A stretch of 64,000 nt of DNA from Acidobacteriota bacterium (GCA_041494445.1 JBGQAU010000002.1:16793-80792); one strand, 5' to 3'. Shown: positions 3,085 to 21,925, numbered from the stretch's first letter. Notes: generated by a model not told the origin, from the sequence alone. Translations and numbers: made by a program.

Positions 3085-3191
3085 GAACCGTGCGGCGATA
3101 AACTACCAACCCCGGGACGCCCGTGTCAACAAGAAGCGCGCCGGCGCGATCGCCCGCGCGTGAGCCGATGCTCCGGGAAAAGCGAGGTTTC

Positions 3192-5450: not shown

Positions 5451-5878
5451 GCGGCGAGGTCCCCTGGTACCGCCTGATCGACCACTCGGGGGACATCGCG
5501 ATGCTGGTGCGCGCGGCGACGCTCCCCGCGCTCTACGACGCGGCGGCGCGGGCGCTGTTCGACGTGATCCTCGACGTCCGGACCGTCGAGCCGCGGGAGC
5601 GGCTCGACATCGGCGTCGAGGGCGCCGTGGATGCGGAAGACCTGCTGGTGCGCTTCCTGTCGGAGCTGCTGTTCCTGCACGACTCGCGCGGCTGGCTCTT
5701 CCGTGGCGCCGAGATCCTCGACATGGGTCCCGATCGCCTGCACGCCTCGGCGATCGGGGAGCCTTTCGATCCCGCCCGCCACGCGATCCAGCGGGAGATC
5801 AAGGCGGTGACGTACCACCACCTCTTGCTGTCCGAGGACGCGGAGGGGTGGTCGGCGCGCCTCGTGCTGGATCTTTAG
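5447..5878 (+). CDS. archease (RtcB cofactor/chaperone family)
   Basis: HSGDIA near the N-terminus, KAVTYHHL near the C-terminus, and a ...LVLDL end, all typical of archease. The GTG start overlaps the rnr stop (GTGA). Confidence 0.85.
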   Translation: MSGEVPWYRLIDHSGDIAMLVRAATLPALYDAAARALFDVILDVRTVEPRERLDIGVEGAVDAEDLLVRFLSELLFLHDSRGWLFRGAEILDMGPDRLHASAIGEPFDPARHAIQREIKAVTYHHLLLSEDAEGWSARLVLDL

Positions 5879-5889
5879 ACGCAAATGGG

Positions 5890-5919
5890 TTCAAATCCAT
5901 GACGCATATGCAGTATAGT
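5890..5919 (+). promoter_or_regulatory. candidate promoter in the AT-richer patch upstream of the cytochrome cluster
   Basis: TTCAAA (5890-5895), an 18-nt spacer, then TATAGT (5914-5919). This is the only clearly AT-richer stretch between archease and the giant cytochrome gene. Confidence 0.25.
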
Positions 5920-6144
5920 AGACTCGTATTGTCGTCAAATTCCCCAGTGACCTTGTGCGAATAGTCGCAGCGCTTCCCGCTACCGCCACCGCCGAGACGT
6001 TGGCAGCATGAAAGTTGACGAATTCTGCAACATCCGGAGCGGCAATAGGGTCCGAGGCGGGGGGCGAGCCGCCGTCGAAGGAGCGCACGGTTTTTGCACA
6101 TCGGCCGTCTCTGGCGGGATAACTCTGGGAGGAGGCCAAAGAGC

Positions 6145-9100
6145 ATGTACGTAAGAAAGGGAACGCTTCTCATGAAAACTCTTGTTAAGGGTGCGCTCGC
6201 GCTCGTCGTTCCCCTGCTGCTGGCCGGGGGGACTTCCTGGGCGGTCCCGCAGTATCTCGATGACGGAGCCTTGCAGAACGCTCAGGGAGGATGGAACCTG
6301 CCGGCGCAGGGCAGCTGCCCCGAGGCGAGCAGCGCGCTGACCCGGCCGGATTGCCTGGCGGTGCGGCTCACGTCGTATACCACGAGGGGGACCTGCGTGC
6401 CGACGGGCAACATCACCCGCAGCTGGAGCACGGGCGTCTGCAACGACACGGCTCACAACGCGGACCTGGCCACCTGCGAGAACACGTTACCTCTGGGCAG
6501 CCGGAAGTTCAGTGCCGGGAGCCCGAATGTCTGCGCCATCGTGATGAAGGGCGACGACAGGAACAAGGCCGTGTGTACGGCCGTGTACGGGGGCACCTGG
6601 GTCACGGCGGGAGCCTGCATCCCGGCCTGGGTGATGCCCGATCGAACCCAGTACACGCCGAACCTCTTCTCCGGCGCGCTTTCGGGCCCCTCCGGCCCGG
6701 GAGACCAGTGCCTCCGCTGCCACAACAGCGTCACCGAGTACAACGGTCCGAGGGTCAGGGACGTCGAGTGGTTCCTGCGGACCGGCCACAAGAACATGGC
6801 CAGGAAAGTGACGCCGGCCGCGGCTGGAGCGGGCCTGCCGTGGGCGGGCCCGGCCTACGCGTGCAGTCTGCCGGGCTTCAACGACATGACGAGCTGCGAG
6901 CTGCACGGCGGGACCTGGGATGCGGCACTGGTCACCTATCCTTCCGACGACAGCGCCGACCCGATCGATTGGCCGAACGGCAAGATCGGCTTCTGCAGCA
7001 ATACGGCTTACAAGACGCAGGCGACGTGCGTCGCCGCCGCCGGGACGTGGACCTGGTACACCCTGAAGTGGATCTATGGCGACTGGCTCAGCTCGCTGCC
7101 CAGGGCGATCTTCGCCGCGCCTCCCAGCTTCGGGAACGCGTCCTCGCCGAATACCTGCGTCGATCCGAGATCCGGGCTTTGCAGCCTCTCCCAGTACATC
7201 ACCCAGGCGACCTGCGAAGCCAATGCCGGCGTCTGGACTTCGAATGGCACCCAGGCGGGGTGCGAAACCAATAACGGCGCGGGCAGCTGGGTGGCGAAGC
7301 CGGGCGCCTCGTACTCCTGCGGGCGGTGCCACACCACCGGCTGGACCAGCGATTCCGTGGTCAACATCGCGAAGGAGCCCGAGAAGTCGTTTTCCGGCAT
7401 CGTTTGGAGTCGGCTGGGCGCTCCCACCGACGGCAAAGTGGACACCGCAGGGGCCGTCGCCGGCGATCCCAACAAGTCCTCCTCGTGGGACGTCTGGGGC
7501 ATCAGCTGCACCCGTTGCCACAACTCCGTGGTCGAGAACACGAGCGGAGTTTGCACTCCCCCCGGCACCGCCGCGGTGCAGTCGAGCCTCGTGACGCAGG
7601 CCCTCTGCGAGGCTGCCGGAGGCACGTGGAGCGCGGGCCCGCCCTATGCGGCGCCTGTCGGATTGTCGAGCCATCACAACGCGATGACGTCGGCCGACGC
7701 CTCCAGCGGAGGCTACTGCAGCGACATGACGCTCGGCAGCCTGACCAAGGAGCAGTGCGAATTCAAGGGCGGCACCTGGTACGCCGTGAATTGCAGCGAT
7801 CCGGTCTGGCCGTCGGCGCGACAGTGCCTGGACACCAGCGGCTGCAGCAATCACCTTTCGGTGTTCACCACGTCGGCGCTCTGCACGGGCGGCGTGTGCA
7901 GCGCCAACACCAGCTCGGCGACCTACGCGACGCCGGCAGATTGCGCGACGAACGGGGGCTTCTGGTACGAGCCCGGGACGTGCAGCAACCCGTTCTACTT
8001 CTCACAGGCCACGTGCACCGCCGCCGGCGGAGCCTGGGCGGCCAACACGTGGAACGCGAAGACCCCCGGAACCTGGAACGCCTCGTCGTGCAGCATCGGG
8101 GGCGGCACGTGCACGGCTCCGCAGTACGTCACCAGCGGCGACTGCACGGGTCACAGCGGAACGTGGAGCAGCAGCGGCAGCGGCTCCTGCTCGTTCCCCG
8201 CGTACACCACGCCGTCGGACTGCCAGTCGCATTCCGGCGCGTGGTCCGCCACCTGGAGCGACAACCTCCAGTGCATGGACGCGGGGGTCTGCAGTGACGT
8301 AACGAAGACGAACCAGATCGCGTGTCTGGCGGTGACTGGAAACACCTGGACCAACGGCAAATGGACCGGCACCAGGACCCGGCGAGGCCAGATGATCACG
8401 TCGGTCTGCATGAACTGCCACCGGCAGGAGACGGGCGGCAAGCCGTACGACAACGCCAGCGCCAACCCGGGGACGGAGGCCACGGTCAATCCGGGACTCT
8501 ATCTCAAGGCCGGGGCCGCCCACGGGACGTTCTCGTTCGTGAGCCACCCGCACGGCAACCAGTTCCTGAACAGCCCGCACGGGCAGTTCACCGGCACCTT
8601 CAACCAGATCGGAACCGCGACCTACGGCAACGGCTACGGCAGCTACTTCCAGAATGACGGCGAGGCGGCCAACACCGGCAACGGCTGCACCGGCTGCCAC
8701 GACGTGCACAAGAGCGTGGTGGAAGAAGCCTTCGAGCCGGCCCCCGGCCAAGAAGGCGCGATCAAGGAGGAGTGCACGGCCTGCCACAAGAAGAATCTGG
8801 CCGGGCTGCTGCACCCCGGCGGCGTGGGCACGCCGCTCGAGGAGATGGAGTCCGAGCCTGCCGACGCGTGCGTGAGCTGTCACATGCCCGACGGCATGCA
8901 CCTCTACCGGATCAAGGCGGATGCCGGGTACACCACGTTCCCGACGGCCGCGATCACGGCCACCACCGCGGCCCAGTGCACGGCCGCCGGCGGCACCTGG
9001 TCCAGCTCGAGCAGCAGCTGCACCGTCAACGCCAACATCTCGCCGGACGGCTCGTTCACGCGGGCGGTCTGGGTGGACATGGACCACGCGTGCGGCCAGT

Positions 9101-10287
9101 GCCACGGCGGCGGCACCGCGCAGGCGAGCACCACGGGCAGCACGAGCACCAGCACCGCGAGCGTCACCGTCACGACCTCCGCCGGCTTCCTGCCCGGCGA
9201 GAGAGTCAGGATTGCGGACGCCGGCGCCCTCGACTACGACGATCAGGGTCTCGGCAGGGGCGATCTCGACAGCTACATCGCCGCTGTGCCGGACGCCACG
9301 CACATCACTCTGGTCGCCAAGCCATCCTTGGCGGTCAGCGGAAAGAGCGTGGTGCAGAACCCCACCAAGAACGGCGCGGGCTACATGACCAGGACCCAAC
9401 TCGGCGCCCTCGCGGAAGGGATGCACAACGACCAGCCGAGCGTTTCGTTTGTCTATTCGCTCGGCAATCCCAACACGCAGGTCGTCAACCTGGACGCGTC
9501 GGCTTCGATGTGCAGCGGGAGCACCGCGGCCTGCGACGCATACGAGTGGGACTGCGGCTCCGACGGGACGCTTACGGCCCCGGCGTATCCGGAGAAGGCC
9601 ATCACCGCCACCTGCACGTACGCCACCGCGGGCACCAAGACGATCACCCTCACCGTGGAGCAGTACGGGGTGAACGGCGCCTCCACCAGCCGGCTCGTGA
9701 ACACGTACCCGTACGTTCCTGCGCCCGTGGTCGGGGGCACCTGCTCGTTCGGGGACGGGACCACCGAGAACACTTGGACCGCGACCGTCACCGACACCTC
9801 GACATCCGCTTCGAAGGTGACCGTGGGTTGGGGCGACAACACCCCGCTCACCAGCGACTTCACGAGCCCCTTCGGACCGTTCACGCACACCTACACGACC
9901 GCGGGCACCTACACGATCACCCACAAGGCGTACAACTCCAGGGGAGAGTCGAGCACCGAGACGTGCCAGGGGATCCTGGGGTACTTCCGGATCGCCGGCA
10001 CCGTGTTCAGGACCGGCGGGGTCCTGCCGGTGGCGTACGCGAGCGTCGAGGTGAAGCAGGGCGCAACCTTCACGGGATCGACCGTCAGAACGGTCATGAC
10101 GGCGGGGGACGGCACGTACACCATCGCGAACCTCAAGCCGGGTGCGTACAGTCTCCGCGCCCGTAAGAGCGGGTCCACGCTCACGTTCTCCGACGTGCTG
10201 AATGTCACGATCGGACCGAGCGGCACCGTCGACTTCACCGCGACAGGCGGGAGCAAGGCGGGAATGGGCAAGCCGTTGGCCCAGTAG
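6145..10287 (+). CDS. giant secreted multihaem cytochrome c (8 CXXCH) with Cys/Trp-rich repeats, two PKD-like modules and a carboxypeptidase-regulatory-like C-terminal domain
   Basis: SD GGGAGGAGG lies 9 nt upstream of ATG 6145 (alternative ATG at 6172). Signal peptide ...LLLAGGTSWA. Haem motifs are CLRCH, CGRCH, CTRCH, CMNCH, CTGCH, CTACH, CVSCH and CGQCH. PKD-like signatures are TYATAGTKTITLTV and HTYTTAGTYTITHKAYN. The C-terminus reads GTVF...DGTYTIANLKPGAYSLRA. Confidence 0.85.
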   Translation: MYVRKGTLLMKTLVKGALALVVPLLLAGGTSWAVPQYLDDGALQNAQGGWNLPAQGSCPEASSALTRPDCLAVRLTSYTTRGTCVPTGNITRSWSTGVCNDTAHNADLATCENTLPLGSRKFSAGSPNVCAIVMKGDDRNKAVCTAVYGGTWVTAGACIPAWVMPDRTQYTPNLFSGALSGPSGPGDQCLRCHNSVTEYNGPRVRDVEWFLRTGHKNMARKVTPAAAGAGLPWAGPAYACSLPGFNDMTSCELHGGTWDAALVTYPSDDSADPIDWPNGKIGFCSNTAYKTQATCVAAAGTWTWYTLKWIYGDWLSSLPRAIFAAPPSFGNASSPNTCVDPRSGLCSLSQYITQATCEANAGVWTSNGTQAGCETNNGAGSWVAKPGASYSCGRCHTTGWTSDSVVNIAKEPEKSFSGIVWSRLGAPTDGKVDTAGAVAGDPNKSSSWDVWGISCTRCHNSVVENTSGVCTPPGTAAVQSSLVTQALCEAAGGTWSAGPPYAAPVGLSSHHNAMTSADASSGGYCSDMTLGSLTKEQCEFKGGTWYAVNCSDPVWPSARQCLDTSGCSNHLSVFTTSALCTGGVCSANTSSATYATPADCATNGGFWYEPGTCSNPFYFSQATCTAAGGAWAANTWNAKTPGTWNASSCSIGGGTCTAPQYVTSGDCTGHSGTWSSSGSGSCSFPAYTTPSDCQSHSGAWSATWSDNLQCMDAGVCSDVTKTNQIACLAVTGNTWTNGKWTGTRTRRGQMITSVCMNCHRQETGGKPYDNASANPGTEATVNPGLYLKAGAAHGTFSFVSHPHGNQFLNSPHGQFTGTFNQIGTATYGNGYGSYFQNDGEAANTGNGCTGCHDVHKSVVEEAFEPAPGQEGAIKEECTACHKKNLAGLLHPGGVGTPLEEMESEPADACVSCHMPDGMHLYRIKADAGYTTFPTAAITATTAAQCTAAGGTWSSSSSSCTVNANISPDGSFTRAVWVDMDHACGQCHGGGTAQASTTGSTSTSTASVTVTTSAGFLPGERVRIADAGALDYDDQGLGRGDLDSYIAAVPDATHITLVAKPSLAVSGKSVVQNPTKNGAGYMTRTQLGALAEGMHNDQPSVSFVYSLGNPNTQVVNLDASASMCSGSTAACDAYEWDCGSDGTLTAPAYPEKAITATCTYATAGTKTITLTVEQYGVNGASTSRLVNTYPYVPAPVVGGTCSFGDGTTENTWTATVTDTSTSASKVTVGWGDNTPLTSDFTSPFGPFTHTYTTAGTYTITHKAYNSRGESSTETCQGILGYFRIAGTVFRTGGVLPVAYASVEVKQGATFTGSTVRTVMTAGDGTYTIANLKPGAYSLRARKSGSTLTFSDVLNVTIGPSGTVDFTATGGSKAGMGKPLAQ

Positions 10288-10351
10288 GCTTCCTGAACGG
10301 CCAAGAAGGGAATCCAAGAGAATGCGAACCCAGGAGATCCTCGGAGGAAAC

Positions 10352-11197
10352 ATGAAGAAGTTGACTCAAGGCGCGCTGATCGTCGCTCTTGGACTGTTCG
10401 CCGTGTCCTTCGCCTCGGCCTACACAGGAAACGCCGTGCCGGGCTCGGGAATCAACGGAACGGTCCACGATCTCAATCGAACGGACACGGGGATGGGCTA
10501 CACGGCAAATCCGGAGGATCCTCTCACCAGGATATGCATCTTCTGCCATGCCCCGCACCACACATACAGGCTGCTCCCGCAGAACGGCGGAAGCTTCACG
10601 GGTAGCGGTCCGACGGACCCGGCCCCGGACGTGTACGACTACCTGCCGCTGTGGAACCACGAGCTCACGATGAACTACACGCAGTACACGATGTACGTGA
10701 ACGGCGTCGGCGCCCCCACGATCGGCCCCAAGGCCTTGCAGGCCAGGGGCGACATGATCCCGGGAAGCGCCTCCCTGCTGTGCCTGAGCTGTCACGACGG
10801 AAGCGTTGCCGTCAACTCGTACGGCAATCCTTCTCAGGTGACGCCCACGAACCACTCGGTCAGCACCGGCAACAAGTTCATCGGGCAGACCTCGCCGTAC
10901 CTCATCGGCAAGGACAACTACCTCGGGAACCACCACCCCATCGGGTTCGACTACGACCAGGTGCAGGCCGGGGACAACGAGATCCGGCCCGCGGACGATG
11001 CCGACCTGGGTGGGGCCGGCAAGGTGCGGGATCACCTGTACGGTCCGGGGAACACGCGGATGGAGTGCGCGACCTGCCATGCCGTCCACAACAAGCAGAA
11101 CACGGGAGAAGCCCTGCTGTGGAGGAGTGATCAGGACAGCAGGCTCTGCCTCACCTGCCACGACAAGGGCACGAATCCGGGACCCACGATTCCGTAA
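10352..11197 (+). CDS. secreted tetrahaem cytochrome c (doubled-CXXCH type)
   Basis: SD GGAGG and signal peptide MKKLTQGALIVALGLFAVSFASA. Haem motifs are CIFCHAPH, CLSCHDG, CATCH and CLTCH. The N-terminal HDL...C-F-CH-PH...PLWN...CLSCHDG pattern is shared with the 16251 gene. Confidence 0.85.
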   Translation: MKKLTQGALIVALGLFAVSFASAYTGNAVPGSGINGTVHDLNRTDTGMGYTANPEDPLTRICIFCHAPHHTYRLLPQNGGSFTGSGPTDPAPDVYDYLPLWNHELTMNYTQYTMYVNGVGAPTIGPKALQARGDMIPGSASLLCLSCHDGSVAVNSYGNPSQVTPTNHSVSTGNKFIGQTSPYLIGKDNYLGNHHPIGFDYDQVQAGDNEIRPADDADLGGAGKVRDHLYGPGNTRMECATCHAVHNKQNTGEALLWRSDQDSRLCLTCHDKGTNPGPTIP

Positions 11198-11220
11198 CGC
11201 ACGATCGGTCGACGTTCGAC

Positions 11221-11260
11221 GAGAGGGGAATGGGAGCCATTCCCCTCTCGTCGTTCTTCC
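11221..11260 (+). terminator. candidate intrinsic terminator
   Basis: Perfect 13-bp stem GAGAGGGGAATGG/CCATTCCCCTCTC with a 3-nt loop, followed by the T-containing GTCGTTCTTCC. Lies 24 nt after the stop. Confidence 0.5.
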
Positions 11261-11416
11261 GCGGCTCCTCGCGCTCTCCCCCCGCGCCCGCGCGATGATA
11301 AGATGCGGCCTGCTTTCGGCTTTCCGGGATGGTCGGGTCCGTGGGGCACGGTCCTGATGGGACACGGAACGCTCTCCCCGCTTCGTGCTCGGGGTGTTCG
11401 CGGACGGGACGGGTCC

Positions 11417-12553
11417 ATGTCGAATGCTCTCAGGGGCATGGCTTGCGCCGCTCTGGCGCTCCTGGCGGCGGCGTGCGCCGCGCCCGTCAGGAAGAAGGAA
11501 GCCGGGGTGTTCTTCCCGCCCGCGCCCGAGCTTCCCCGGCTTCAATACCTGATCTCCTTCAGCGGCCTCAAGGACATCGAGCGGCAATCCGCGTTCGACC
11601 GTTTCGTGGTGGGCGAGACGCAGGACGTGAAGCTCGAGAAGCCTTACGGCGTCGCGGTCCACGAAGGGAAGATCTACGTTTGCGACACCAACGCGACGGT
11701 CGTCGTCTTCGACCTGGTGGGCAAGACCTTCCGGACCCTGAAGGGTGCGGTCGGCCCGGGAAAGCTGATCCAGCCGATCAACATCAGCATCGATGTCGAC
11801 GGCACCAAGTACGTGGCGGATCCGGTCCGCGGCCAGGTCGTGGCCTTCGACCGGAACGACGAGTACCTGAAGGCCTACGGGGCCCCCGGGGACTGGAAGC
11901 CCGTGGACGCGGTCCCGTTCGAGGACAGGCTCTACGTCGCCGACGTCGAGCACGGGATGGTCAAGGTCTTCGACAAGGGCAGCGGGGAGTCGCTCAAGAC
12001 CATCGGCGCCACGGGGGAGCCTTCCGAGCGGCTCGACCGCCCGACGAATCTGGCTTTCGACCGGGAGGGCTACCTCTACGTCACGGACGCCGGAAGATTC
12101 CAGGTGGTCAAGTTCGACCGGGATGGTCACTTCAAGTCGACGTTCGGGAAGGTCGGGGACAACCTGGGACACTTCGCGAGACCCAAGGGGATCGCTCTCG
12201 ATCGGGAAGGCCGCCTCTACGCGGTGGACGCCTCCTTCAACAACGTGCAGATCTTCAATAAGGATGGGCGGCTCCTGATGTTCTTCGGGGAGAGCGGGGA
12301 CAAGCCGGGTGGCTTCCTGCTGCCCGCGAAAGTCGCGATCGACTACGACAACCTGCAGTACTTCAAGGGCTACGTCGAACCCGACTTCCAGCCGGACTAC
12401 CTGGTTTTCGTGACAAGCCAGTTCGGAAGCCGCCTGGTCAACGTCCTGGCGTACGGGCGGGCCAAGGGGAAGAAGTATCCGACCGATGCGGAGATCCTGA
12501 AGTTGTTCGAGGAGCGGCGGAAGACGGAGCTTGAGAAACTGCAGAAGCAGTGA
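11417..12553 (+). CDS. NHL-repeat beta-propeller lipoprotein 1
   Basis: Lipobox LLAAAC. Repeated motifs such as YGVAVHEGKIYVCD, PINISIDVDGTKYVAD, PTNLAFDREGYLYVTD and [16 protein letters not shown] are typical of NHL blades. Confidence 0.85.
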   Translation: MSNALRGMACAALALLAAACAAPVRKKEAGVFFPPAPELPRLQYLISFSGLKDIERQSAFDRFVVGETQDVKLEKPYGVAVHEGKIYVCDTNATVVVFDLVGKTFRTLKGAVGPGKLIQPINISIDVDGTKYVADPVRGQVVAFDRNDEYLKAYGAPGDWKPVDAVPFEDRLYVADVEHGMVKVFDKGSGESLKTIGATGEPSERLDRPTNLAFDREGYLYVTDAGRFQVVKFDRDGHFKSTFGKVGDNLGHFARPKGIALDREGRLYAVDASFNNVQIFNKDGRLLMFFGESGDKPGGFLLPAKVAIDYDNLQYFKGYVEPDFQPDYLVFVTSQFGSRLVNVLAYGRAKGKKYPTDAEILKLFEERRKTELEKLQKQ

Positions 12554-12590
12554 GCCGCGGGGGAGCGCTGCCATCGCCGGCCGGGAGTCG

Positions 12591-13127
12591 ATGAAGGCGT
12601 GGATGATCGTGGTGTGCGTCTCGGTCGTCGCCGCGCAGTCCATGGGCTGCGGCGCGGCGGAGCGCCGCAGGGTCCTCACGTTCCTGTTCGACGGGGTGCC
12701 GCCGCCCAAGGCGGCCGAGGCGCCGGACGCCGGACAGCAGGAGATCCGGCCGGACGCCGGCCGGTCGAGAGACGTTGGCTACAGGGAACATGGCCCCTAC
12801 GCGGCGAGACAGTGCGGTGCGTGCCACCAGCCGGGAGCTGCCAACGCCCTCGTGGCGCCGAAAGAGAGTCTCTGTCTCCGGTGCCACGAGATCAAGCTGG
12901 ACAAGAAGTACGTCCACGGTCCCCTCGCCTCGGGCGGTTGCCTGTCGTGCCACGACCCCCATAGCTCCCAGTACCGCTACCTCCTCGTGTCCGAGTCCGA
13001 TGGCTTCTGCGTGAATTGCCACGACCCACAGGCGATCGCACGGATCGCCGCGCACGGAGGGTCCCAGGAGAACTGCACGACGTGTCATGACGCCCACCTG
13101 TCCGACACGAAGTACCTGCTGAAATAG
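12591..13127 (+). CDS. pentahaem c-type cytochrome lipoprotein (c7/c3-like modules)
   Basis: Lipobox AQSMGC. Haem motifs are CGACH, CLRCH, CLSCHDPH, CVNCH and CTTCHDAH. Confidence 0.85.
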   Translation: MKAWMIVVCVSVVAAQSMGCGAAERRRVLTFLFDGVPPPKAAEAPDAGQQEIRPDAGRSRDVGYREHGPYAARQCGACHQPGAANALVAPKESLCLRCHEIKLDKKYVHGPLASGGCLSCHDPHSSQYRYLLVSESDGFCVNCHDPQAIARIAAHGGSQENCTTCHDAHLSDTKYLLK

Positions 13128-13142
13128 GAACGGAGACCCGGC

Positions 13143-15176
13143 TTGCGCCCCAAGGCCATCCTCGTTCTCCTGGCGGTCGCGGGCTCCGCACTCTCCCTGA
13201 CCCTCGCCGACCTGAGCGTCTTCGTTCCGAAGTCGGTCGGAAGCGGCGCGTACCTCGATCTGTTCGGCTCGTTCGAGGAAGACGACAGCCGCAGCAGCTC
13301 GCGAACGTTCGGGTGGACCGACACCTTCGTCAAGGAGAAGCTCACTCTCTACTCGAACGGCTACCTCTATCACCCGCGTTTCCTGCAGTACCGGCTCTCC
13401 GTCGCCGGGGCCCTCAAACAGGAGAAGTACCAGCCCTCCTACTATGACAGGCCCCTGGGATGGCAGCGAGCCTCGGGCATCGAGTACGACGGAAAGCTCC
13501 TGTTCCTGGCCGACCATCCCTACACCCTGGAGTTGTTCGCCTCCCGCTACGAGCCCCTCTTCAAGGACGAAGCGGCGACGCGGCACAACAGCGTCGCGAC
13601 CCGGCAGGGCGGTCTCTTCCGGTACCGCAGGAGACCGTACCTGTTCCGGGCCGACTTCTCCAAAGGCACCAACCGGTCGGCCTCGTCGTACTCCGAGGTC
13701 ACCCGGTTCGGCGTGGACGGCGAGTATCTCAAGCAATACAGGAACGGAAACCAGTTCTCCCTGCGCGCCGGTTACACCCCCTCGCGGTTCGCCAGCTCCT
13801 CGGGAGTGGAGGGTCATTCTACGGAATCGCTCTTCAGCAGCTTCGTGGACCTGCAGCGGGCGCGGTTGGAGTCTGGCGTGACCAGAAACTCGCGCGATCA
13901 GGAGGACCGGGTGTCGGGGAGGTTCGAGAGCGACCAGTTCGCATGGTACGAGCGTCTGAGCGCGTACCTGCCGCTGAACCTGAGGAGCGACATCTCCTAC
14001 CGCTATCAGAACAACGAGAACACGTTCCCCGGCGAGGATGCTTCGGGCCGCCACAAGCTGTCGGACATCGGCAAGGACCTTGAACTCAATATCGATCACA
14101 GGCTCTACCAGAGCCTGGTCTCCCGATACACCTTCTTCGATAGATCGAGGGAGTCCTCGGGTGGCGATTCGTCGTTCACGTCCCACGCCCTGGCCTTCGA
14201 CTACAACAAGACGATTCCGCGGGGCAAGATCCTGGCGGCGTTGAGCTTCTCCCGGGGCGACTCGGACAACCGGGGCCGCGCGGACGTCGTGGACGAGCTG
14301 CACGCGGCAGCTGTCGGTGGGGCGTTCAGCCTCGGCCGGCAGAACGTGGAGCCGCTGAGCCTGGTCGTCTTCCTCAAGTCGCCCCTGCCGCCGTTCCAGA
14401 CGGTTCGCCTGGAGAAGAACGTTGACTACGTGGTGGCGCCGCTCCTGAACACGCTCGAGATCAGCGTGCTCCGTGTGCCGCCGGAATTCGAGGTGGCGGG
14501 GACGACGGACTACGACTTCCTGGTCTCCTATTCCCTCACCACCGACCGGTTCGAGCTCCGGACCGAAACGGTCGCGCACAGCGCGAGCGTCGAGCTGCTC
14601 GACAACCAGCTGACCCCGTACTACAGCTACGTGGCGGTCCGATCCACGACGCTCTCCGGGGTCCTCCCGGGCGGCCCTCTCGACTCCACGACCTACACGA
14701 CGGGCCTTAGATTCCAGAGCGGGCCGCTGCGAGGGCTGGGGGAATTTCAGTACCTGAAATGGGACGTCAGTCCCTACAGGGCCTGGAGGGTAGAGGTCCA
14801 GTACGTCGGCCCGCTGAACCCGACCACCACCGTCTACGGGACCGTGTCGTACCTGAATAAGCGGTATCCCCAAGGCACGTCCCTGCAGCTGCGCGAGGCC
14901 TACACGGACGAGAGGGAGTCCGTCACCGGCAGCCTCCGGAAGCAGCTCTCTCCGCGGGGTCTGATGCTGTCCGCGGGGGGTTCCGTTTCGCGATGGCAGG
15001 GGCGGATCCGTAGCGACGCCTACGCGCTGAACTCCTCCTTGGACTGGAAGATCGGGAAGCTGGCGCTCAGCGCCGGCGCGAGCGCGTACCTGTCCCAAAC
15101 GGAGGACGGCGTCATCCTGTCGAACCGGCGCTTCCATCAGTACTATTACGTGAGCGCCCGGAGAGAGCTGTTCTAG
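13143..15176 (+). CDS. predicted outer-membrane beta-barrel protein (candidate porin of a porin-cytochrome complex)
   Basis: Signal-peptide-like N-terminus. Alternating hydrophobic/polar strand pattern rich in Y, R, S and G throughout. C-terminal ...YYYVSARRELF ends in Phe. The start is a TTG with GGAG 6 nt upstream, so it is uncertain. Confidence 0.65.
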   Translation: MRPKAILVLLAVAGSALSLTLADLSVFVPKSVGSGAYLDLFGSFEEDDSRSSSRTFGWTDTFVKEKLTLYSNGYLYHPRFLQYRLSVAGALKQEKYQPSYYDRPLGWQRASGIEYDGKLLFLADHPYTLELFASRYEPLFKDEAATRHNSVATRQGGLFRYRRRPYLFRADFSKGTNRSASSYSEVTRFGVDGEYLKQYRNGNQFSLRAGYTPSRFASSSGVEGHSTESLFSSFVDLQRARLESGVTRNSRDQEDRVSGRFESDQFAWYERLSAYLPLNLRSDISYRYQNNENTFPGEDASGRHKLSDIGKDLELNIDHRLYQSLVSRYTFFDRSRESSGGDSSFTSHALAFDYNKTIPRGKILAALSFSRGDSDNRGRADVVDELHAAAVGGAFSLGRQNVEPLSLVVFLKSPLPPFQTVRLEKNVDYVVAPLLNTLEISVLRVPPEFEVAGTTDYDFLVSYSLTTDRFELRTETVAHSASVELLDNQLTPYYSYVAVRSTTLSGVLPGGPLDSTTYTTGLRFQSGPLRGLGEFQYLKWDVSPYRAWRVEVQYVGPLNPTTTVYGTVSYLNKRYPQGTSLQLREAYTDERESVTGSLRKQLSPRGLMLSAGGSVSRWQGRIRSDAYALNSSLDWKIGKLALSAGASAYLSQTEDGVILSNRRFHQYYYVSARRELF

Positions 15177-15199
15177 GGGGCCGAAAGGAGAGCGCCAGG

Positions 15200-16270
15200 G
15201 TGAGCACGCTCGGTGGGAAAGGCGGGGGCAGGAGAAGGACCGCGGTCCTGCTCGGCCTCGTCTCGCTGCTCTCGGGATGCGTCTCGAGGTGGACGCTCCG
15301 CACGGAGCAGCCGGCCCTCGCCCTCCAGTGGCCGTACCAGCCGATGAAGGCGAAGCTCACCTACCTCCGGTCGTTGACCGGTTTCGCGAAGCAGCAGGGC
15401 GCCGCCTCGACGTTCAAGGCCTTCGTCTACGGGGGCGAGAGCGAGGACCGGAACGCCTTCGTCCTGCCGGTGGCGGTGGCGACCGGGGCCGACGGTCGCA
15501 TCGCGGTCGCCGACATGGGGCGCAGGTGCGTTCACCTCTACGTTCCCGGTGAGCAAACCTACGTCCGGATCGACGGCTCGAAAGGGGAGAAGATCCGGTC
15601 GCCCGTCGCGGTCGTCTTCGACGACGAGCTGAGGCTCTACCTCTCCGACTCGGCGGGGAAGGTATTCGCGTTCGGCCGGCAGGGCGAGTTCCTCTTCACG
15701 CTGGAGAAGGCCGGCGAGGAAGTCCTCCGGCGGCCGACCGGTCTCGCGTACAGCCCCGGCCGAAAGCTGCTCTACGTCGTGGACACCCTCGCGAACAGGG
15801 TCCACGCCTTCAGCAAGAGCGGGGAAGTCGTCTTCTCCTTCGGCCGGCGAGGGGAGGAGGCGGGCAGCTTCAACTTCCCGACGCACATCTTCCGGTCCTC
15901 CGCGGGAGATCTCTACATCACGAACTCGCTCGACTTCCGGATCGAGATCTTCGACGAGACGGGAAAGCACCTCGGGTCCTTTGGCCATCACGGCGACGGC
16001 TCCGGGGACCTGGCGATGCCCAAGGGGCTGGCCGTGGACAAGGACGGCGTGGTCTACGTCGCCGACAGCATCTTCGACAACGTGCAGCTCTTCAACCGGC
16101 GAGGGGATTTTCTCCTGACTCTCGGCAGTAGAGGCGCGGACTTCGGCGAGTTCTGGCTCCCCTCCGGAGTCTTCATCAGTGAAAACGACGAACTGTACGT
16201 CTGTGACACCTACAATCGGCGCATACAGGTGTTTCGGATCACGGAGCGGTATGCTGAAGAATCGTCCTGA
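15200..16270 (+). CDS. NHL-repeat beta-propeller lipoprotein 2 (paralogue of 11417..12553)
   Basis: Lipobox LLSGC. NHL blades include PVAVATGADGRIAVAD, PTGLAYSPGRKLLYVVD, PKGLAVDKDGVVYVAD and LPSGVFISENDELYVCD. Confidence 0.85.
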   Translation: MSTLGGKGGGRRRTAVLLGLVSLLSGCVSRWTLRTEQPALALQWPYQPMKAKLTYLRSLTGFAKQQGAASTFKAFVYGGESEDRNAFVLPVAVATGADGRIAVADMGRRCVHLYVPGEQTYVRIDGSKGEKIRSPVAVVFDDELRLYLSDSAGKVFAFGRQGEFLFTLEKAGEEVLRRPTGLAYSPGRKLLYVVDTLANRVHAFSKSGEVVFSFGRRGEEAGSFNFPTHIFRSSAGDLYITNSLDFRIEIFDETGKHLGSFGHHGDGSGDLAMPKGLAVDKDGVVYVADSIFDNVQLFNRRGDFLLTLGSRGADFGEFWLPSGVFISENDELYVCDTYNRRIQVFRITERYAEESS

Positions 16271-18107
16271 TCCCGGCCCGCCCCGCTGGCGGGTCCTGGT
16301 CGGCGCCCTATGTCTGCTCGGCTCCGGGCTCGGGCCCGGCCCCTCGGCGCAGACGGCGGCGAACATCGCCAACACGAAGCACGACCTCTCGGTGTCGGGC
16401 GCGGGACCGATCCGGTCGCTGACGGAGACCCGGGTCTGCGTCTTCTGCCACACGCCCCACAACGGAATGCCGCTCTCGCCGCTCTGGAACAAGGAGCTCG
16501 AGCCGCAGGTCTACCAGGTTTACACGAGCCCGACTCTCAGGGCGGGCCCGCTTCCCCAGCCCACCGGCCCGACGAAACTGTGCCTGAGCTGCCATGACGG
16601 CACGATCGCCATGGGAGCGGTCCTCAATCCTGCCGGGGGAATCCTCATGGCGGGCGGCGACACGCTGCCCCCGGGGAGCCTCTCCGATTTCGGCCTCGAC
16701 CTGTCGGGGCACCACCCGGTCTCGTTCATGTACTCGAATTCGCTGCCCAACGAGGAGCTTCAGCCGTCGCCCCCCTCGGATCTCGTCTTCGGCGGCACGG
16801 ACGAGGTCCACTGCATCACGTGCCACGATCCGCACAGCGACGTTTACGGCAAGTTCCTGGCGAAGGACAATCGCTACTCGGCGCTCTGCACCAGCTGCCA
16901 CCTGATCGCGGGGTGGAGCGGGTCGGCCCACGCCACCTCGACGGCATCGGTGGCCGGCATCCTGCCCCGGCCCCCCAAGACGTGGCCGACGTGGACGCAG
17001 CTGAACGAGTGGGGGTGTGAGACGTGCCACACGCCCCATTTCGCCCCGACCGCGCAAGGCCTGCTGAATTTCACCGCCTTGCCGCCGTCCCCGTTCTCCT
17101 GCACCTCCGACGGATGTCACGTGTCGCAGCCGCCCTCGCCTCACGCCCTGACCGCCTCGGACGTCGGGGTGCCTGGCAGGACGGGGGTTCGCTCCGTGGC
17201 CGGGCGGGTGGACATCGGCGGTCAGACGCGGAAGATCTCCGCGCACCACGAGGATCCCGGCATGAACCCGTCGGGGCTTCGGAGACCGGGACAACCTTCC
17301 CGGCCCGGTGCCGGCGGCGTAGGCTGCTCGGATTGCCACAATCCTCACGTCGCCAACTCCCGGGAAGCCACCGCACCCTATGCCTCAGGCATGCTGCAGG
17401 GGGTGAGCGGCGTCGACAGAAACGGCGCGGATGTCCCCGCGGCGACCTACCAGTACGAGGTCTGCTTCAAGTGCCACGGCGACTACAATCCGGACGTGGA
17501 GTACGTTCCCCGCTTCCTCGGCGGCACGAACACGCGACTGGTGTTCGATCCCGGGAACCCCTCGTTCCACCCGGTCGTGGGCATGGGGAGGAACCCGAAC
17601 GTCCCCAGCATCCCGTCGTCCTTCGAGCCCACCATGAGCCCATCGGACGTGATCTATTGCACGGCCTGTCACGCCGACGACGGGGGAGTCTCGAGCGGGC
17701 CGCACGGGTCGTCCTTCGCGCCGATCCTGAAGGCGCGCTACGAGACCGCGGACAACACGCCGGAGAGCTACGAGAGCTACGCTCTCTGCTACCGCTGCCA
17801 CGACAGGTCCAGCATCCTGAGCGACGTGAGCTTCCGGAAGACGGGGATCCCCACGACGCCTTCGGGCGGAGGCCACAGCGGGCATCTCGCGGCAGGCGCG
17901 CCGTGCTCCGCGTGTCACGACGCGCACGGCGTGTACGAAACCGACGCGACGGGGACGGGATCCCACACGCATCTCATCGACTTCGACAAGCGGATCGTCT
18001 TGCCGAGGGGCGGCGCGTACCCGGTTTACAACGACGCGGGGGCGGGCTCAGGAAGCTGCAATCTCGTCTGTCACGGCAAGGAACACGACAACTGGTCCTA
18101 CCCCTGA
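16251..18107 (+). CDS. multihaem cytochrome c (10 CXXCH plus CX4CH and CX3CH variants)
   Basis: ATG 16251 overlaps the previous gene by 20 nt. Signal peptide. Canonical motifs are CVFCHTPH, CLSCHDG, CITCHDPH, CTSCH, CETCHTPH, CSDCHNPH, CFKCH, CTACH, CYRCH and CSACHDAH. Variants are CTSDGCH and CNLVCH. Confidence 0.85.
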   Translation: MLKNRPDPGPPRWRVLVGALCLLGSGLGPGPSAQTAANIANTKHDLSVSGAGPIRSLTETRVCVFCHTPHNGMPLSPLWNKELEPQVYQVYTSPTLRAGPLPQPTGPTKLCLSCHDGTIAMGAVLNPAGGILMAGGDTLPPGSLSDFGLDLSGHHPVSFMYSNSLPNEELQPSPPSDLVFGGTDEVHCITCHDPHSDVYGKFLAKDNRYSALCTSCHLIAGWSGSAHATSTASVAGILPRPPKTWPTWTQLNEWGCETCHTPHFAPTAQGLLNFTALPPSPFSCTSDGCHVSQPPSPHALTASDVGVPGRTGVRSVAGRVDIGGQTRKISAHHEDPGMNPSGLRRPGQPSRPGAGGVGCSDCHNPHVANSREATAPYASGMLQGVSGVDRNGADVPAATYQYEVCFKCHGDYNPDVEYVPRFLGGTNTRLVFDPGNPSFHPVVGMGRNPNVPSIPSSFEPTMSPSDVIYCTACHADDGGVSSGPHGSSFAPILKARYETADNTPESYESYALCYRCHDRSSILSDVSFRKTGIPTTPSGGGHSGHLAAGAPCSACHDAHGVYETDATGTGSHTHLIDFDKRIVLPRGGAYPVYNDAGAGSGSCNLVCHGKEHDNWSYP

Positions 18108-19438
18108 TCCCTTTGCCGCCCCTCGGCCTTTCCGGCGGGCTTCGGTGCCTCGGGCTTCCGGCCGGGGGTCACTCGATCGTAGTAGGAAGGCCTGTGACAC
18201 CCCGGGGAGCACCCTCCGCCGGTCTCGGTCTTCACGAACTTCAGGGGAAGGCTCCATTTCCCGAACGGGACGGCCTTCGCCATGAGCTTCGGCAGGTCGC
18301 CGCCGTGGATCTCGTGGCACAGCTTGCAGCTTCGCCCCTTCTGCCGGTTGTTCACGTGCAGATAGTGGAGGTTCCTCTCCCCGTCCCTGAAGTTCGTGGC
18401 GAAGGAAGTGTCCGGATACTGAACCAGATCCCGCTTGTGACAGCCGAAGCACAATGCGAACTCCGTGTCGGTGTACGGGACATAGACATCGGCAGGGAAT
18501 TCCTTCACCAGGAGCTTCGGGTACGGGCCGCCGTGGGGGTCGTGGCAGGGAGTGCACCTGCCGTCCTGGATGGGGCCGTGGAGCATCGTCATGCTCTTCG
18601 CAATGACGCCGCCGTGGCAGCCCAGGCAGGTCTCCTTCTCCGGCTTCAGCAGTAGCTTCCCCTGGTCGCTGGCGTGGGGGGAATGGCAGTTGGCGCAGCC
18701 TTTTCCGTCCTTCACGGCGACATGGGCGACCGGGGCCTTCTCGACCTTCCCCGCGATCTCCTCATGGCACTTGAAGCAGACTCGGGCGCCTTCCTCGGAC
18801 AGCAGCTTCGGGTGCGCGGCACCGTGCGGGTCGTGACACGAGGTGCAGCCGCTCGCCATCGCCGGATGCACGTCGGGCTTTTTCAACAGGTCCTGGATGC
18901 CGAGATGGCAGCCGGTGCACACCGCGTCTCCCTCCCTCAGCAGGAGCGCCTTCGTGTCAGATTCATGAGGGGTGTGGCAGGCCGTGCAGTCCCCGGCGGA
19001 GACGGGGCCGTGGAGGAACTTGAAGGCGACCCGGTCCGAATGACAGGACTCGCACAGGTCCTTGAGCGGCTGCGACAGGAGCTTCGGCTGGTCCCCGGCG
19101 TGAGGGTCGTGGCAGGTCGTGCACGATCCTTCCTTCACGGGCTCGTGGACGTGGCTCTTCTTCCCGAACGCGTCATGACAGTCGTCGCAGAGCCCGGGCG
19201 GCGTCTTGGTGAGCTTGAACGTCTTCGTGCCTTTCTGAGGATGCGGCGTCGCCACGGACTCGTGACAACTGTCGCAGGACTCCGTGACGGGGTGGACGAC
19301 CTTGTGCTTGAGCAGCGTCTCGTGGCACGAAGCGGAGACGCACCCTTCCTGGGCCGCGGCGTCGGAGCAGGCGACCCCCAGGCCGACCGTCACGAGCGGG
19401 GTGAGCAGGAGAGTCAAGAGAAGCCGTTTCTTTCCCAT
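18098..19438 (-). CDS. multihaem cytochrome c lipoprotein (13 CXXCH plus 2 variants) built from repeated c7-like units
   Basis: Lipobox LGVAC. Reiterated unit C-x2-CH ... (V/L)H-P ... C-x2-CH-(D/T/S)-PH ... PKLL. Canonical motifs are CDSCH, CDDCH, CTTCH, CESCH, CTACH, CTGCH, CTSCH, CFKCH, CANCH, CLGCH, CTPCH, CFGCH and CKLCH. Variants are CVSASCH and CSPGCH. Confidence 0.9.
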   Translation of the reverse strand: MGKKRLLLTLLLTPLVTVGLGVACSDAAAQEGCVSASCHETLLKHKVVHPVTESCDSCHESVATPHPQKGTKTFKLTKTPPGLCDDCHDAFGKKSHVHEPVKEGSCTTCHDPHAGDQPKLLSQPLKDLCESCHSDRVAFKFLHGPVSAGDCTACHTPHESDTKALLLREGDAVCTGCHLGIQDLLKKPDVHPAMASGCTSCHDPHGAAHPKLLSEEGARVCFKCHEEIAGKVEKAPVAHVAVKDGKGCANCHSPHASDQGKLLLKPEKETCLGCHGGVIAKSMTMLHGPIQDGRCTPCHDPHGGPYPKLLVKEFPADVYVPYTDTEFALCFGCHKRDLVQYPDTSFATNFRDGERNLHYLHVNNRQKGRSCKLCHEIHGGDLPKLMAKAVPFGKWSLPLKFVKTETGGGCSPGCHRPSYYDRVTPGRKPEAPKPAGKAEGRQRDQG

Positions 19439-19567
19439 GAACGTGTGATCCTACCAGAGGGCGGAGCCGTTTCGCAGGCGTCATCGCAACGCCGCGAAAA
19501 TAGCAAGAAGCGTGCCCGCACGGTCCGCGAGCGTGGTAGGCTGACCCGGCCGGGAGGACCATCCGCC

Positions 19568-21016
19568 ATGGCTCCGATTCCCGCCGCCGAGCGGCTCGAC
19601 GACTATCGCTGGCGCATTCCGCGGCAGGGGGCGATGCGGACCGACGGGATCGTCTTCGCCAGCGACCGCCTCATGCGGGACCTCCTGGGAGACCCGGCGC
19701 TCGAACAGGTGGCCAACGTCGCGTGCCTGCCCGGCATCGTCGGCGCTTCCCTGGCCATGCCCGACGCCCATTGGGGATACGGGTTCGCCATCGGAGGAGT
19801 CGCCGCGTTCGACGCGGAGGACGGGATTGTCTCGCCCGGGGGAGTCGGGTACGACATCAACTGCGGGGTGAGGCTGCTCCGATCGAGCCTCGACCGCGAC
19901 GAGGTCCGGCCCCTCATGACGCGGCTCGTCGACGCGCTCTTCGCGGCGGTCCCCACGGGGGTGGGATCGCACCGCAGGGAGGAGGTGCTCACCGAGAGGG
20001 AGGAGCGGGACCTCCTCGTGCGCGGCGCGGCGTGGGCGGTGGAGCGGGGATACGGCTGGTCGTCGGACCTCGAGGCGATCGAGGCCGGAGGCGTGCTGCC
20101 CGGGGCCGACCCGGACGCCGTCTCCGCGCGGGCGATCGAGCGGGGACGCGCGCAGGTGGGGACCGTCGGGAGCGGCAACCACTTCATCGAGGTCGGCTTC
20201 GTGGACGAGGTGTACGACGAGGCGGCCGCGTCGGCGTTCGGGCTCAGGCTCCACGGCGTGACGGTCCTGATCCACTCGGGCTCCCGCGGCCTCGGCTACC
20301 AGGTCTGCGACGACGCGGTGAAGGGCATGGTGAAGGCGGCCGCGAAGTACGGGATCGACCTCCCGGACCGCCAGCTCTGCTGCGCGCCTCTAGGGTCCAA
20401 GGAGGCCAGGGCCTATCTCGCGGCGATGGCGTGCGCGGCGAACTACGCCTTCGCCAACCGCCAGCGCATGGCGCACGGCGTGCGCGAGGCGTTCGAGAAG
20501 ACCTTCGGGGTCGGTCCCAGGGAGCACGGTCTGCACACCGTCTACGATGTCTGCCACAACGTGGCCAAGTTCGAAACGCACGAGGTGCAGGGGACTCCCC
20601 GACGGGTCTGCGTTCACCGGAAAGGGGCCACGCGCGCGTTCCCCGCCGGCCATCCGGACGTTCCGGAGCGATACCGAGGCGTCGGCCAGCCGGTCCTGAT
20701 CCCCGGGGACATGGGGCGCTACTCCTACGTGCTGGCGGGAGCCCCGGGCGCGATGCGCGAGACGTTCGGGAGCACTTGCCACGGAGCGGGCCGGGTCATG
20801 AGCCGGACGGCGGCGAAGCGCGCGGCGCGCGGCCGCTCGCTGCTGAAGGAGTTGGAGGCCCGGGGAGTCTCGATCCGATCCGCCGGGATGGCGACCGTGG
20901 CGGAGGAGATGCCCGAGGCCTACAAGGACGTGTCCGACGTCGTGGACGTCGTCCACGGGGCGGGGCTCTCCACGAAGGTGGCGCGGCTCGTTCCGATGGG
21001 CGTCATCAAGGGGTGA
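19568..21016 (+). CDS. rtcB: RNA 3'-phosphate/2',3'-cyclic phosphate ligase RtcB
   Basis: PDAHWGYGFAIGGV, GYDINCGVR, GSGNHFIE, HSGSRGLG and CHGAGR motifs, with the C-terminal ...PMGVIKG typical of RtcB. Confidence 0.92.
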   Translation: MAPIPAAERLDDYRWRIPRQGAMRTDGIVFASDRLMRDLLGDPALEQVANVACLPGIVGASLAMPDAHWGYGFAIGGVAAFDAEDGIVSPGGVGYDINCGVRLLRSSLDRDEVRPLMTRLVDALFAAVPTGVGSHRREEVLTEREERDLLVRGAAWAVERGYGWSSDLEAIEAGGVLPGADPDAVSARAIERGRAQVGTVGSGNHFIEVGFVDEVYDEAAASAFGLRLHGVTVLIHSGSRGLGYQVCDDAVKGMVKAAAKYGIDLPDRQLCCAPLGSKEARAYLAAMACAANYAFANRQRMAHGVREAFEKTFGVGPREHGLHTVYDVCHNVAKFETHEVQGTPRRVCVHRKGATRAFPAGHPDVPERYRGVGQPVLIPGDMGRYSYVLAGAPGAMRETFGSTCHGAGRVMSRTAAKRAARGRSLLKELEARGVSIRSAGMATVAEEMPEAYKDVSDVVDVVHGAGLSTKVARLVPMGVIKG

Positions 21017-21019: not shown

Positions 21020-21057
21020 GGAAAAGAAAACGGGGCGGCCCCTCAAGGACCGCCCCG
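21020..21057 (-). terminator. candidate intrinsic terminator for the c3 cytochrome gene
   Basis: 8-bp stem CGGGGCGG/CCGCCCCG (21031-21038 / 21050-21057) with an 11-nt loop. On the minus strand it is followed by TTTTCTTTTCC. Confidence 0.45.
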
Positions 21058-21094
21058 GGCGTACCGCAAAGCGGACGTTTCTGTCCTCGGGACG

Positions 21095-21478
21095 CTACGC
21101 CGCCTTGACGTGACAGCTCTTGCAGCTCTTGGGGTCCGGCGCCTTCTTGCCCGCCGTGACGGACTTCTCGTGGCAACCCTTGCAGAGCTTGTGAGCGGCG
21201 TCCATCATCTTCGGCGTCTTGTCCTTGGCTTCCTTGCCGTGGCAAGTGGTGCACGCCTTGGGGGTCTCGCCCTCCTTCAGCCCGTGATGGCAGTCGGCAC
21301 ACTTCACGCCCCGGTCCGCGTGGGCCTTGTGCGGGAAGGTCACCGTCCCCATCTTCGTGTCGAACTTGATCGTCGCCTTGTCGGCCGGGATGTCCGCGGC
21401 CATCACGCACATGCTGACCAGGAACAACCCGGCTACCAGAAGCGCCACTCTCCTCACGATCGAGCCTCCTTTTCGCAC
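21095..21478 (-). CDS. tetrahaem cytochrome c3 (class III) family, periplasmic
   Basis: Signal peptide. TFPHKAH plus CADCHH, CTTCHG, CKGCHE and CKSCHV in about 100 mature residues. Confidence 0.85.
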   Translation of the reverse strand: MRKGGSIVRRVALLVAGLFLVSMCVMAADIPADKATIKFDTKMGTVTFPHKAHADRGVKCADCHHGLKEGETPKACTTCHGKEAKDKTPKMMDAAHKLCKGCHEKSVTAGKKAPDPKSCKSCHVKAA

Positions 21479-21894
21479 CCGCGGGTGCCCTGCGCGGCAC
21501 TCGCCGTTTATGGGTCGAACCGCCTTCGCGCCTCACGCGCGCCACATGTCCCGGCGTTCTCGGGAACGGCGTCACGAATAGCGGCAACACAGCACCAACC
21601 CGCTCCTTATACCACAACCCGACATCGATCCCGACGCCCCGATTTCGGCCCATGCCGCATCGGGCGAGAGCGTCTCCCTCTCCGGATGCGAACGTCGTGC
21701 CGATGCGGTGCCGGCGCCTCCCGCCCCGCTTCCGCCGTGCATTCCGTCCCATTTTGGCCCATTTCTGCGGGATATCGCCCAGGTGTCGCGTCACGGTCCG
21801 CACGAGGGCCCGGATCCCAGCGGCCCGACGCCTGGAGCGTTGCCGTAACATGTTGAACGATGGGTGGTTACATCGCCGATCTCGGATGGCCGAG

Positions 21895-21917: not shown

Positions 21918-21925
21918 GGCGATTC

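Follow-up and report, generated by a model that had tools for sequence, protein, structure and literature searches.

We analysed a 64,000-nucleotide stretch of DNA from an Acidobacteriota bacterium (GCA_041494445.1, JBGQAU010000002.1:16793-80792), referred to here as the window, in which a cluster of cytochrome genes lies between the genes for archease and for the RNA ligase RtcB. Genes were called by the GC content of third codon positions, the window having about 69% GC, and the calls were checked against the public gene calls for the same DNA. The archease gene (5447-5878, plus strand; PF01951, E=6.3e-36) starts with a GTG that overlaps the RNase R stop codon and ends with a TAG at 5876-5878, and rtcB (19568-21016, plus strand; PF01139, E=3e-172; 82-92% identical to relatives) starts with an ATG at 19568. 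Both genes were intact, full length and co-oriented, and they stood 13,689 nt apart as the left and right borders of one slot. The interval of 5879-19567 contained only eight genes, namely five multihaem cytochromes, two NHL propellers and one large β-barrel, in agreement with an earlier note on this DNA, which had given the interval the same bounds and had assigned all of it to a single functional theme.

The five cytochromes of this block carry 4 to 15 haem motifs and have signal or lipobox-like N-termini. The first gene, cytA (6145-10287, plus strand), encodes a secreted protein of 1380 residues with 8 CxxCH motifs, PKD and CarboxypepD_reg domains and nine C-x(2-5)-GG-x-W repeats, and in the conduit proposed below, its product would probably form the end at the cell surface or outside the cell. 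The nine repeat copies (e.g. CEAAGGTW) are spread over residues 144-952, and no Pfam or NCBIfam family matched the repeat unit in scans of the block proteins. Just 16 of the 60 cysteines of this protein lie inside CxxCH motifs, and the repeat may be disulfide-rich. The next genes, all on the plus strand, are cytB (10352-11197; four haem motifs and a signal peptide), NHL1 (11417-12553; a six-bladed NHL β-propeller with a lipoprotein-like N-terminus), cytC (12603-13127; five haem motifs), the outer-membrane β-barrel gene (13143-15176), NHL2 (15200-16270; an NHL β-propeller lipoprotein) and cytD (16251-18107; 10-12 haem motifs). The last gene, cytE (18098-19438), lies on the minus strand and encodes 13-15 haem motifs behind a lipobox-like N-terminus; both cytD and cytE matched the MtrC/MtrF domain II/IV family. 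These two genes are convergent and their stop codons overlap by 10 nt (18098-18107), so there is no space for a terminator between them.

The barrel comprises 677 residues with about 30 strands and a C-terminal Phe, and it belongs to no curated family: no Pfam or NCBIfam entry, MtrB_PioB included, matched it even at E<=10. An AlphaFold model built with 38 homologues was all-β, with about 30 long strands and a mean pLDDT of 86.6. When the model was searched with Foldseek, the matches were large outer-membrane barrels, with TM-scores of only about 0.3-0.37; MtrB (6r2q_B) had the top query-normalised TM-score among the matches listed, at only 0.37. Judged by its composition, the block would encode a porin-cytochrome conduit for extracellular electron transfer, in which the NHL propellers are likely scaffolds.

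Two scans with RtcB, one of reference genomes and one of metagenomes, yielded 160 rtcB loci among the matches listed, 142 of which had at least 700 nt of upstream DNA. In 99 of these 142 loci (70%), drawn from many phyla, rtcB was directly preceded by the archease gene in the same orientation (median gap 40 nt), and none of the 160 listed loci had a homologue of the cytochrome cluster before rtcB. Among the matches listed, a single relative exceeded 67% identity, and the listed metagenome matches added nothing for dating the insertion. The best genome-scan match among those listed was a metagenome-assembled genome from Terriglobia, L001, whose RtcB is 82% identical to that of the window and whose archease is 65% identical. 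The gene order of L001 was tRNA-Leu, RNase R, archease, a 55-nt spacer, rtcB and a CBS-domain gene, with no cluster. As evident from the alignment, L001 was colinear with the window on both sides, barring three segments found only in the window: the block itself (5881-19586), 21020-22378 and 22932-30501. The same adjacency was found in other Acidobacteriota loci (L008, L009, L024, L028, L031 and L053).

Because adjacency is the majority state and L001 is colinear but empty at this site, the comparison supports archease-rtcB adjacency as the ancestral state and the block as an insertion. The synteny comparison proposed by the earlier note gave the cluster-free adjacency that it had predicted, and its suggestion that the two genes were once neighbours is borne out to that extent. 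The reverse history, in which the cluster was ancestral at the site and was lost by deletion from L001 and other relatives with an adjacent pair, appears very unlikely to us. A general loss is conceivable for L001, which also lacks both cytochrome-bearing segments downstream of rtcB. However, adjacency with a spacer of about 40 nt prevails across phyla and recurs in the other Acidobacteriota loci, and the deletion would have to be precise and to be repeated in several lineages. Additionally, archease and RtcB homologues forming a group of 76-82% identity were found on contigs whose lengths match (4.0-7.6 kb); should the two sets of contigs be identical, they would leave no room between archease and rtcB for a cluster of 13.7 kb.

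Closer relatives were found by a protein-database search with RtcB, which revealed a distinct group of about 43 RtcB proteins that are 75-92% identical to that of the window; four of the loci were examined. In L170 (RtcB 92%) and L172 (87%), the eight-gene cluster type of the window was located just upstream of rtcB. In L173 and L174 (83% each), rtcB was instead preceded by other clusters of cytochromes, propellers and rotamases. All four loci shared the downstream genes of the window, namely those for cytochrome c3, the CBS-domain protein, malic enzyme, the 919-aa and 412-aa cytochromes, cytochrome b and a rhodanese; the downstream response regulator was found in L170, L172 and L174 and not in L173. 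In L174/L175, archease and rtcB lay on one contig, in the order RNase R, archease, 11 genes and rtcB, with a gap of 15,663 nt between the two border genes. Among the 11 genes were those for a rotamase, a CsgG-like protein, a protein of 698 residues, NHL proteins and cytochromes that reach 26 haem motifs. Two of these cytochromes are unusually haem-dense: p654 (L174 6664-8628) has 26 CxxCH motifs in 654 residues and is only about 34% identical to cytE, and cyt429 (L174 8642-9931) has 16 in 429 residues.

The borders of the slot were shared between these different occupants. On the left, the similarity between the window and L175, whose archease is 73% identical, stopped about 10 nt past the archease stop codon, and on the right, the similarity between the window and L174 resumed about 40 nt before the rtcB ATG. 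Where they could be compared with the window type, the slot genes of L173 and L174 were 24-39% identical, and others had no counterpart, whereas the flanking proteins were 76-83% identical. On these comparisons, the content of the slot is variable, with different clusters in the same archease-to-rtcB gap. In a neighbour-joining tree of RtcB, the cluster-bearing genomes formed one clade nested among genomes with a known or inferred adjacent pair, and in 175 of 200 bootstraps, the clade of the window, L170 and L172 was free of adjacent-pair and other-cluster genomes. These results support an insertion that is old and shared within a Terriglobia subclade, and neither recent nor private to this genome.

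We also found the module at unrelated sites. The barrel had 142 homologues at E<=0.001, the best of them apart from itself being 58% identical, and five other genomes (L083, L084, L165, L166 and L167) had the same eight-gene order, each with different, unrelated flanking genes: giant PKD cytochrome, small cytochrome, NHL protein, small cytochrome, barrel, NHL protein, cytD-like and cytE-like cytochromes. The identities to these unrelated-locus copies were 77-79% for NHL1, 69-72% for cytD and 51-54% for the barrel. Between the window and L170 or L172, the flank proteins were 81-92% identical and the cluster proteins 43-74% identical, and the window cluster was no closer to these same-slot copies than to those in unrelated contexts. 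When six or seven cluster proteins were concatenated for trees, from which L170 was excluded, the window grouped with L084, at an unrelated locus, with 93-95% bootstrap support and not with L172; in the flank tree, the window joined L170 at 100% and L172 came next. Differences at 4-fold degenerate sites, taken in codons for identical residues, were measured to tell exchange apart from rapid protein evolution. For the window and L172, the cluster differed by 0.525 +/- 0.016 and the flanks by 0.405 +/- 0.012, and the cluster value was as high as for unrelated loci (0.44-0.56) and near saturation (~0.58). Replacement is well supported, as far as sequence comparison goes, between the cluster types and for the window versus L172.

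The explanation that we prefer, with a probability of roughly 0.7, is that the block is an old, replaceable extracellular-electron-transfer island in a conserved archease-rtcB slot, whose content has diversified and has partly been swapped. Archease and rtcB would originally have been an adjacent, co-oriented pair, and their short spacer would have gained an electron-transfer cluster in the ancestor of a Terriglobia subclade (Acidobacteriota). The slot of the present genome would hold a self-contained, eight-gene, 13.7-kb porin-cytochrome module with promoters of its own, one of them sigma-54-like and upstream of cytE and the other in the region of an AT-rich patch upstream of cytA, and rtcB would have kept, or gained, its own promoter-like element. 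The content would later have diversified and, at least in part, have been swapped for other variants. The likeliest route for such swapping would be homologous recombination in the flanks (RNase R and archease on the left; rtcB, cytochrome c3, CBS-domain protein and malic enzyme on the right), proceeding without mobility genes or repeats. Of this account, the earlier adjacency, the filled slot in five relatives, the common borders, the differing contents and the occurrence of the module at other sites are shown, whereas the recombination, the promoters and the role in electron transfer are inferred.

Several observations weigh against this explanation, and some of them favour a single ancient insertion followed by vertical descent only, in which the low identity of the cluster would result from the fast evolution of surface cytochromes with no exchange. 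We consider this unlikely, although it fits part of the data. For the window and L170, its closest relative, the 4-fold difference of the cluster is only a little higher than that of the flanks (0.418 +/- 0.023; flanks 0.350 +/- 0.012) and lies within the range of the individual flank genes (0.21-0.47; e.g. rtcB 0.424), and this pair is compatible with vertical descent and fast protein evolution. Nucleotide identity was about 75% in the cluster and about 87% in the flanks, the change being mostly non-synonymous. For cytochromes of the outer membrane and the cell exterior, a raised dN/dS has been published, and they reportedly evolve faster than those of the inner membrane (PMC12977616), which makes the downstream cytochromes an imperfect control. 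The 4-fold sites are close to saturation, and the weaker codon bias of the cluster could inflate its value. The placement of all cluster-bearing genomes in one RtcB clade also suits vertical descent, and yet only 55 of 200 bootstraps gave a clade of all five cluster-bearing RtcB proteins without adjacent-pair genomes, so several independent insertions remain conceivable. The left border is documented in two genomes only, the window and L174/L175, and no cross-lineage donor can be named for the module. Vertical descent alone, however, does not fit the slots of L173 and L174, whose gene sets and orders differ from those of the window and whose genes are far more divergent than the flanks. Nor does it fit the grouping of the window cluster with L084 instead of L172, or the 4-fold divergence from L172, which exceeds that of the flanks by about 6 standard errors. 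The test of cytochrome phylogeny against lineage that the earlier note had proposed, with the flank proteins as the reference, was therefore divided in its outcome, with incongruence for L172 and L084 and compatibility with vertical descent for L170.

A stronger form of the replaceable-island explanation is that the archease-rtcB spacer is a dedicated exchange slot for whole outer-membrane conduits, which are swapped by recombination in the flanks; we advance this tentatively, as somewhat less probable than not. O-antigen and capsule loci have conserved flanks around strongly divergent or unrelated cell-surface gene sets, with no integrase. The archease-rtcB slot resembles them in its conserved flanks and divergent surface gene sets and differs in its respiratory cargo, the flank recombination being only inferred here. 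If such an exchange slot exists, close relatives would differ in their surface respiratory machinery as strains differ in O-antigen or capsule type. The locus also resembles a replacement locus in that unrelated or deeply divergent gene sets occupy one slot with shared borders (the window versus L174/L175). It resembles a classical genomic island in being present or absent at the same site among close relatives, the cluster being absent in L001 and present or replaced in L170-L175; in contrast to such islands, the block has no direct repeats or att sites, no integrase or transposase at its borders and no tRNA insertion.

We found no mobility gene among the eight genes of the block in Pfam and NCBIfam scans, no direct or inverted repeats bracketing 5879-19567 and, with ARAGORN, no tRNA at the block edges. 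The 55-nt spacer of L001 had no leftover similarity beyond a few bases to either junction of the window, and no scar is readable. The earlier note had reported no visible integrase, transposase or flanking direct repeats, and this stood for the block itself; an intact tyrosine integrase gene (1861-2988, plus strand; PF00589 and the Arm-binding domain PF12167) is nevertheless present in the window, although it does not bracket the block. This gene and an excisionase-like helix-turn-helix gene (1614-1859, plus strand; PF12728) abut the 3' end of tRNA-Leu(CAG) (2997-3084, minus strand; ARAGORN), 2.9 kb left of archease. The tRNA is 86% identical in nucleotides to L001 7157-7243 and is the left anchor of the conserved backbone, which continues with the RNase R gene (3123-5450, plus strand; the identical gene is listed with the Pfam families RNB, S1 and OB_RNB), which is colinear with both L001 and L175. 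Because 1-2996 had no similarity to L001 and the integrase lies at tRNA-Leu, we read this region as probably a separate integrative element inserted at the tRNA and not part of the cytochrome block. Delivery of the block by this element, or by another classical mobile element, would draw on the intact integrase nearby, but tRNA-Leu, RNase R and archease, in synteny with L001, stand between integrase and block, and the ends and interior of the block lack repeats and mobility genes, respectively. Moreover, no integrase or transposase family was found among the listed flanking genes of the five other module loci. We regard this alternative as highly improbable.

A further alternative is a misjoin in the assembly or binning, by which a cytochrome contig was placed between archease and rtcB. 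Its point of departure is that the contigs of GCA_041479655.1 and of the Logan assembly SRR29605729 both break inside cytA at window position 9151-9177, a Ser/Thr-rich stretch (GSTSTSTASVTVTT). The identical break point in two independent assemblies suggests a repeat or strain variation at this position. At the break, however, the two NCBI contigs share a 27-nt overlap, and cytA is colinear with its L084 homologue across it. The archease-cytA join and the cytE-rtcB join are each confirmed by these two assemblies, and L170, L171 and L172 independently have the cluster beside rtcB. Both junctions of the block are real, and an artefact is barely credible.

The left junction and upstream region of cytA (5879-6144, plus strand) contains an AT-rich patch and two promoter-like motifs. 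The patch, which the earlier note had pointed out as the most AT-rich of this part of the window, is real: with 38% GC, 5882-5941 was the lowest 60-nt window of the entire 64 kb (mean 69.3%, standard deviation 6.3). As an insertion scar it is less convincing, and it would be better read as a promoter region of the cluster, with a sigma-70-like TTCAAA-18-TATAGT site inside it at 5890-5919, the sole such match in 5700-6300. No terminator was found after archease. Further downstream, at 6083-6098, a degenerate -24/-12-like sequence (GCGCAC-N5-TTGCA) precedes cytA; cytA homologues in L083, L166 and L167 are preceded by perfect GGCAC-N5-TTGC motifs, whereas the copy in the window is only degenerate.

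At the right end of the block, a perfect sigma-54-type -24/-12 motif, GGCACGCTTCTTGC (19503-19516, minus strand), lies about 65 nt upstream of the cytE start and is conserved in L170 and L172. A similar motif, GGCGCGTAGATTGC, at 25555-25568 lies about 63 nt upstream of the gene for the 919-aa cytochrome, in parallel with that of cytE. A scan of the whole window with the sigma-54 consensus gave three matches against 2.3 expected, no excess over chance, and only the positions of two of them, just upstream of cytochrome genes, are suggestive. Between the cytE motif and rtcB, the segment of 19528-19567 (plus strand) is conserved among the window, L170, L172 and the differently occupied L174, and it forms the right border of the slot. 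It contains an extended -10-like element, TGGTAGGCT, at 19534-19542 and a GGGAGGA ribosome-binding site; the element was common to these four loci and absent from L001. Because a divergent cytochrome gene and this -10-like motif precede rtcB, its co-transcription with archease is very unlikely, and rtcB is predicted to be transcribed on its own in this genome.

The base composition of the block differed slightly from its surroundings. The earlier note had found no obvious difference in GC content by eye, but the block is measurably lower, at 66.0% versus 70.2% in the rest of the window; codon positions 1 and 2, and with them the amino-acid composition, account for most of this gap. At third positions, the GC fraction of the block was 0.877 against 0.905 for 28 backbone genes (Mann-Whitney p=0.006), and the downstream multihaem cytochromes, at 0.92-0.94, were similar to the backbone. 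The comparison of codon usage that had been proposed for block and flanks did reveal a difference, the pooled distance between cluster and backbone being 0.149 compared with 0.078 +/- 0.012 for random backbone subsets (0 of 2000 reached 0.149), although the effect is small. Other loci bearing the module had 65-69% GC, similar to the block. The signal is real but small and agrees with either an old insertion or a donor close in GC content.

We compared the block with known electron-transfer systems. It resembles MtrCAB of Shewanella and Pcc/Ext of Geobacter in having a large outer-membrane barrel beside multihaem cytochromes with signal or lipoprotein N-termini, and MtrCAB in particular in that MtrB was among the best matches of the barrel model and that cytD and cytE match the family of MtrC/MtrF domains. 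In contrast to MtrCAB and Pcc, the barrel of about 30 strands lies outside MtrB_PioB and all other Pfam and NCBIfam families, with TM-scores that stay at 0.3-0.37, and the block also encodes two NHL propellers and, in cytA, a giant protein that combines 8 haem motifs with PKD and CarboxypepD_reg domains. The block may also resemble the genes beside omcS in Geobacter. The Uet cluster of 'Ca. Tenderia' contains the β-barrel UetC, multihaem cytochromes and the NHL-repeat proteins UetH and UetI (bioRxiv 10.1101/2022.05.06.490989; PMC10734462). Compared by gene content, the two clusters share a barrel, multihaem cytochromes and two NHL proteins, whereas Uet also has peptidyl-prolyl isomerase, cupredoxin and trihaem c7 proteins; the slot variants of L173 and L174, which have rotamases, are closer to Uet in gene content than the block of the window is. 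Syntenic 'porin-scaffold-cytochrome' clusters, termed EET1, have been described in peat Terriglobia by Fiorito et al., in a paper that says nothing of archease, rtcB, NHL repeats or intergenomic exchange (bioRxiv 10.64898/2026.05.27.727921). By description only, EET1 is alike in phylum, class and the general make-up of porin, multihaem cytochromes and scaffold.

The horizontal spread of mtrCAB has been documented (PMC8805035), as has a high turnover of cytochrome genes in Geobacter (PMC12977616). The present locus is similar in that a whole conduit acts as a transferable unit and that repertoires differ between close relatives, and it is different in that a single fixed slot between conserved housekeeping genes is involved, without mobility genes. 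Clusters joining a barrel, multihaem cytochromes and NHL proteins, such as Uet, are already known; what is new is that a fixed slot between two housekeeping genes, free of integrases, has several occupants that differ deeply. On this account, the locus would provide a clean, datable case of soil Acidobacteriota gaining and diversifying machinery for extracellular electron transfer. The conserved flanks could be used as handles to recover and compare conduit variants from metagenomes and to test whether exchange tracks the available electron acceptors. The locus also indicates that the widespread pairing of archease with rtcB can be broken, rtcB apparently keeping its own promoter, and for annotation it defines a recurrent eight-gene module, present in many genomes, whose barrel family is uncurated.

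Additional electron-transfer genes lie to the right of the slot, where the housekeeping genes for RtcB and the CBS-domain protein are interleaved with them, and the description of the block in the earlier note as the whole cytochrome cluster does not hold in this respect. The two segments beyond rtcB that are absent from L001, both of which are present in L170-L174, contain genes for a 4-haem cytochrome c3 (21095-21457, minus strand) and, on the plus strand, a receiver-only response regulator (21926-22324), a malic enzyme/PTA fusion (23048-25351), a 919-aa 19-haem cytochrome (25631-28390), a 412-aa 11-haem cytochrome (28416-29654) and cytochrome b561 (29612-30544). The 919-aa and 412-aa cytochromes, together with cytochrome b561, are probably an inner-membrane quinol-oxidising module, and these proteins, the periplasmic cytochrome c3 and the response regulator probably belong to the same pathway as the block. 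In L166, homologues of the response regulator (2457-2825) and of the 919-aa cytochrome, in this genome fused to a cytochrome b domain (17205-20039), directly flank the module, and in L167, a sigma-54 activator (549-1223) flanks the eight genes; these neighbours hint at a larger conserved regulon. Further to the right, the region of 31611-57000 encodes ribosomal protein S20, a tetratricopeptide-repeat protein with a YfiO-family match, TolB, TolQ, a RecN-like protein, NfeD, a GGDEF protein, DnaK and alanyl-tRNA synthetase. These are core chromosome genes, so the island sits in a housekeeping neighbourhood.

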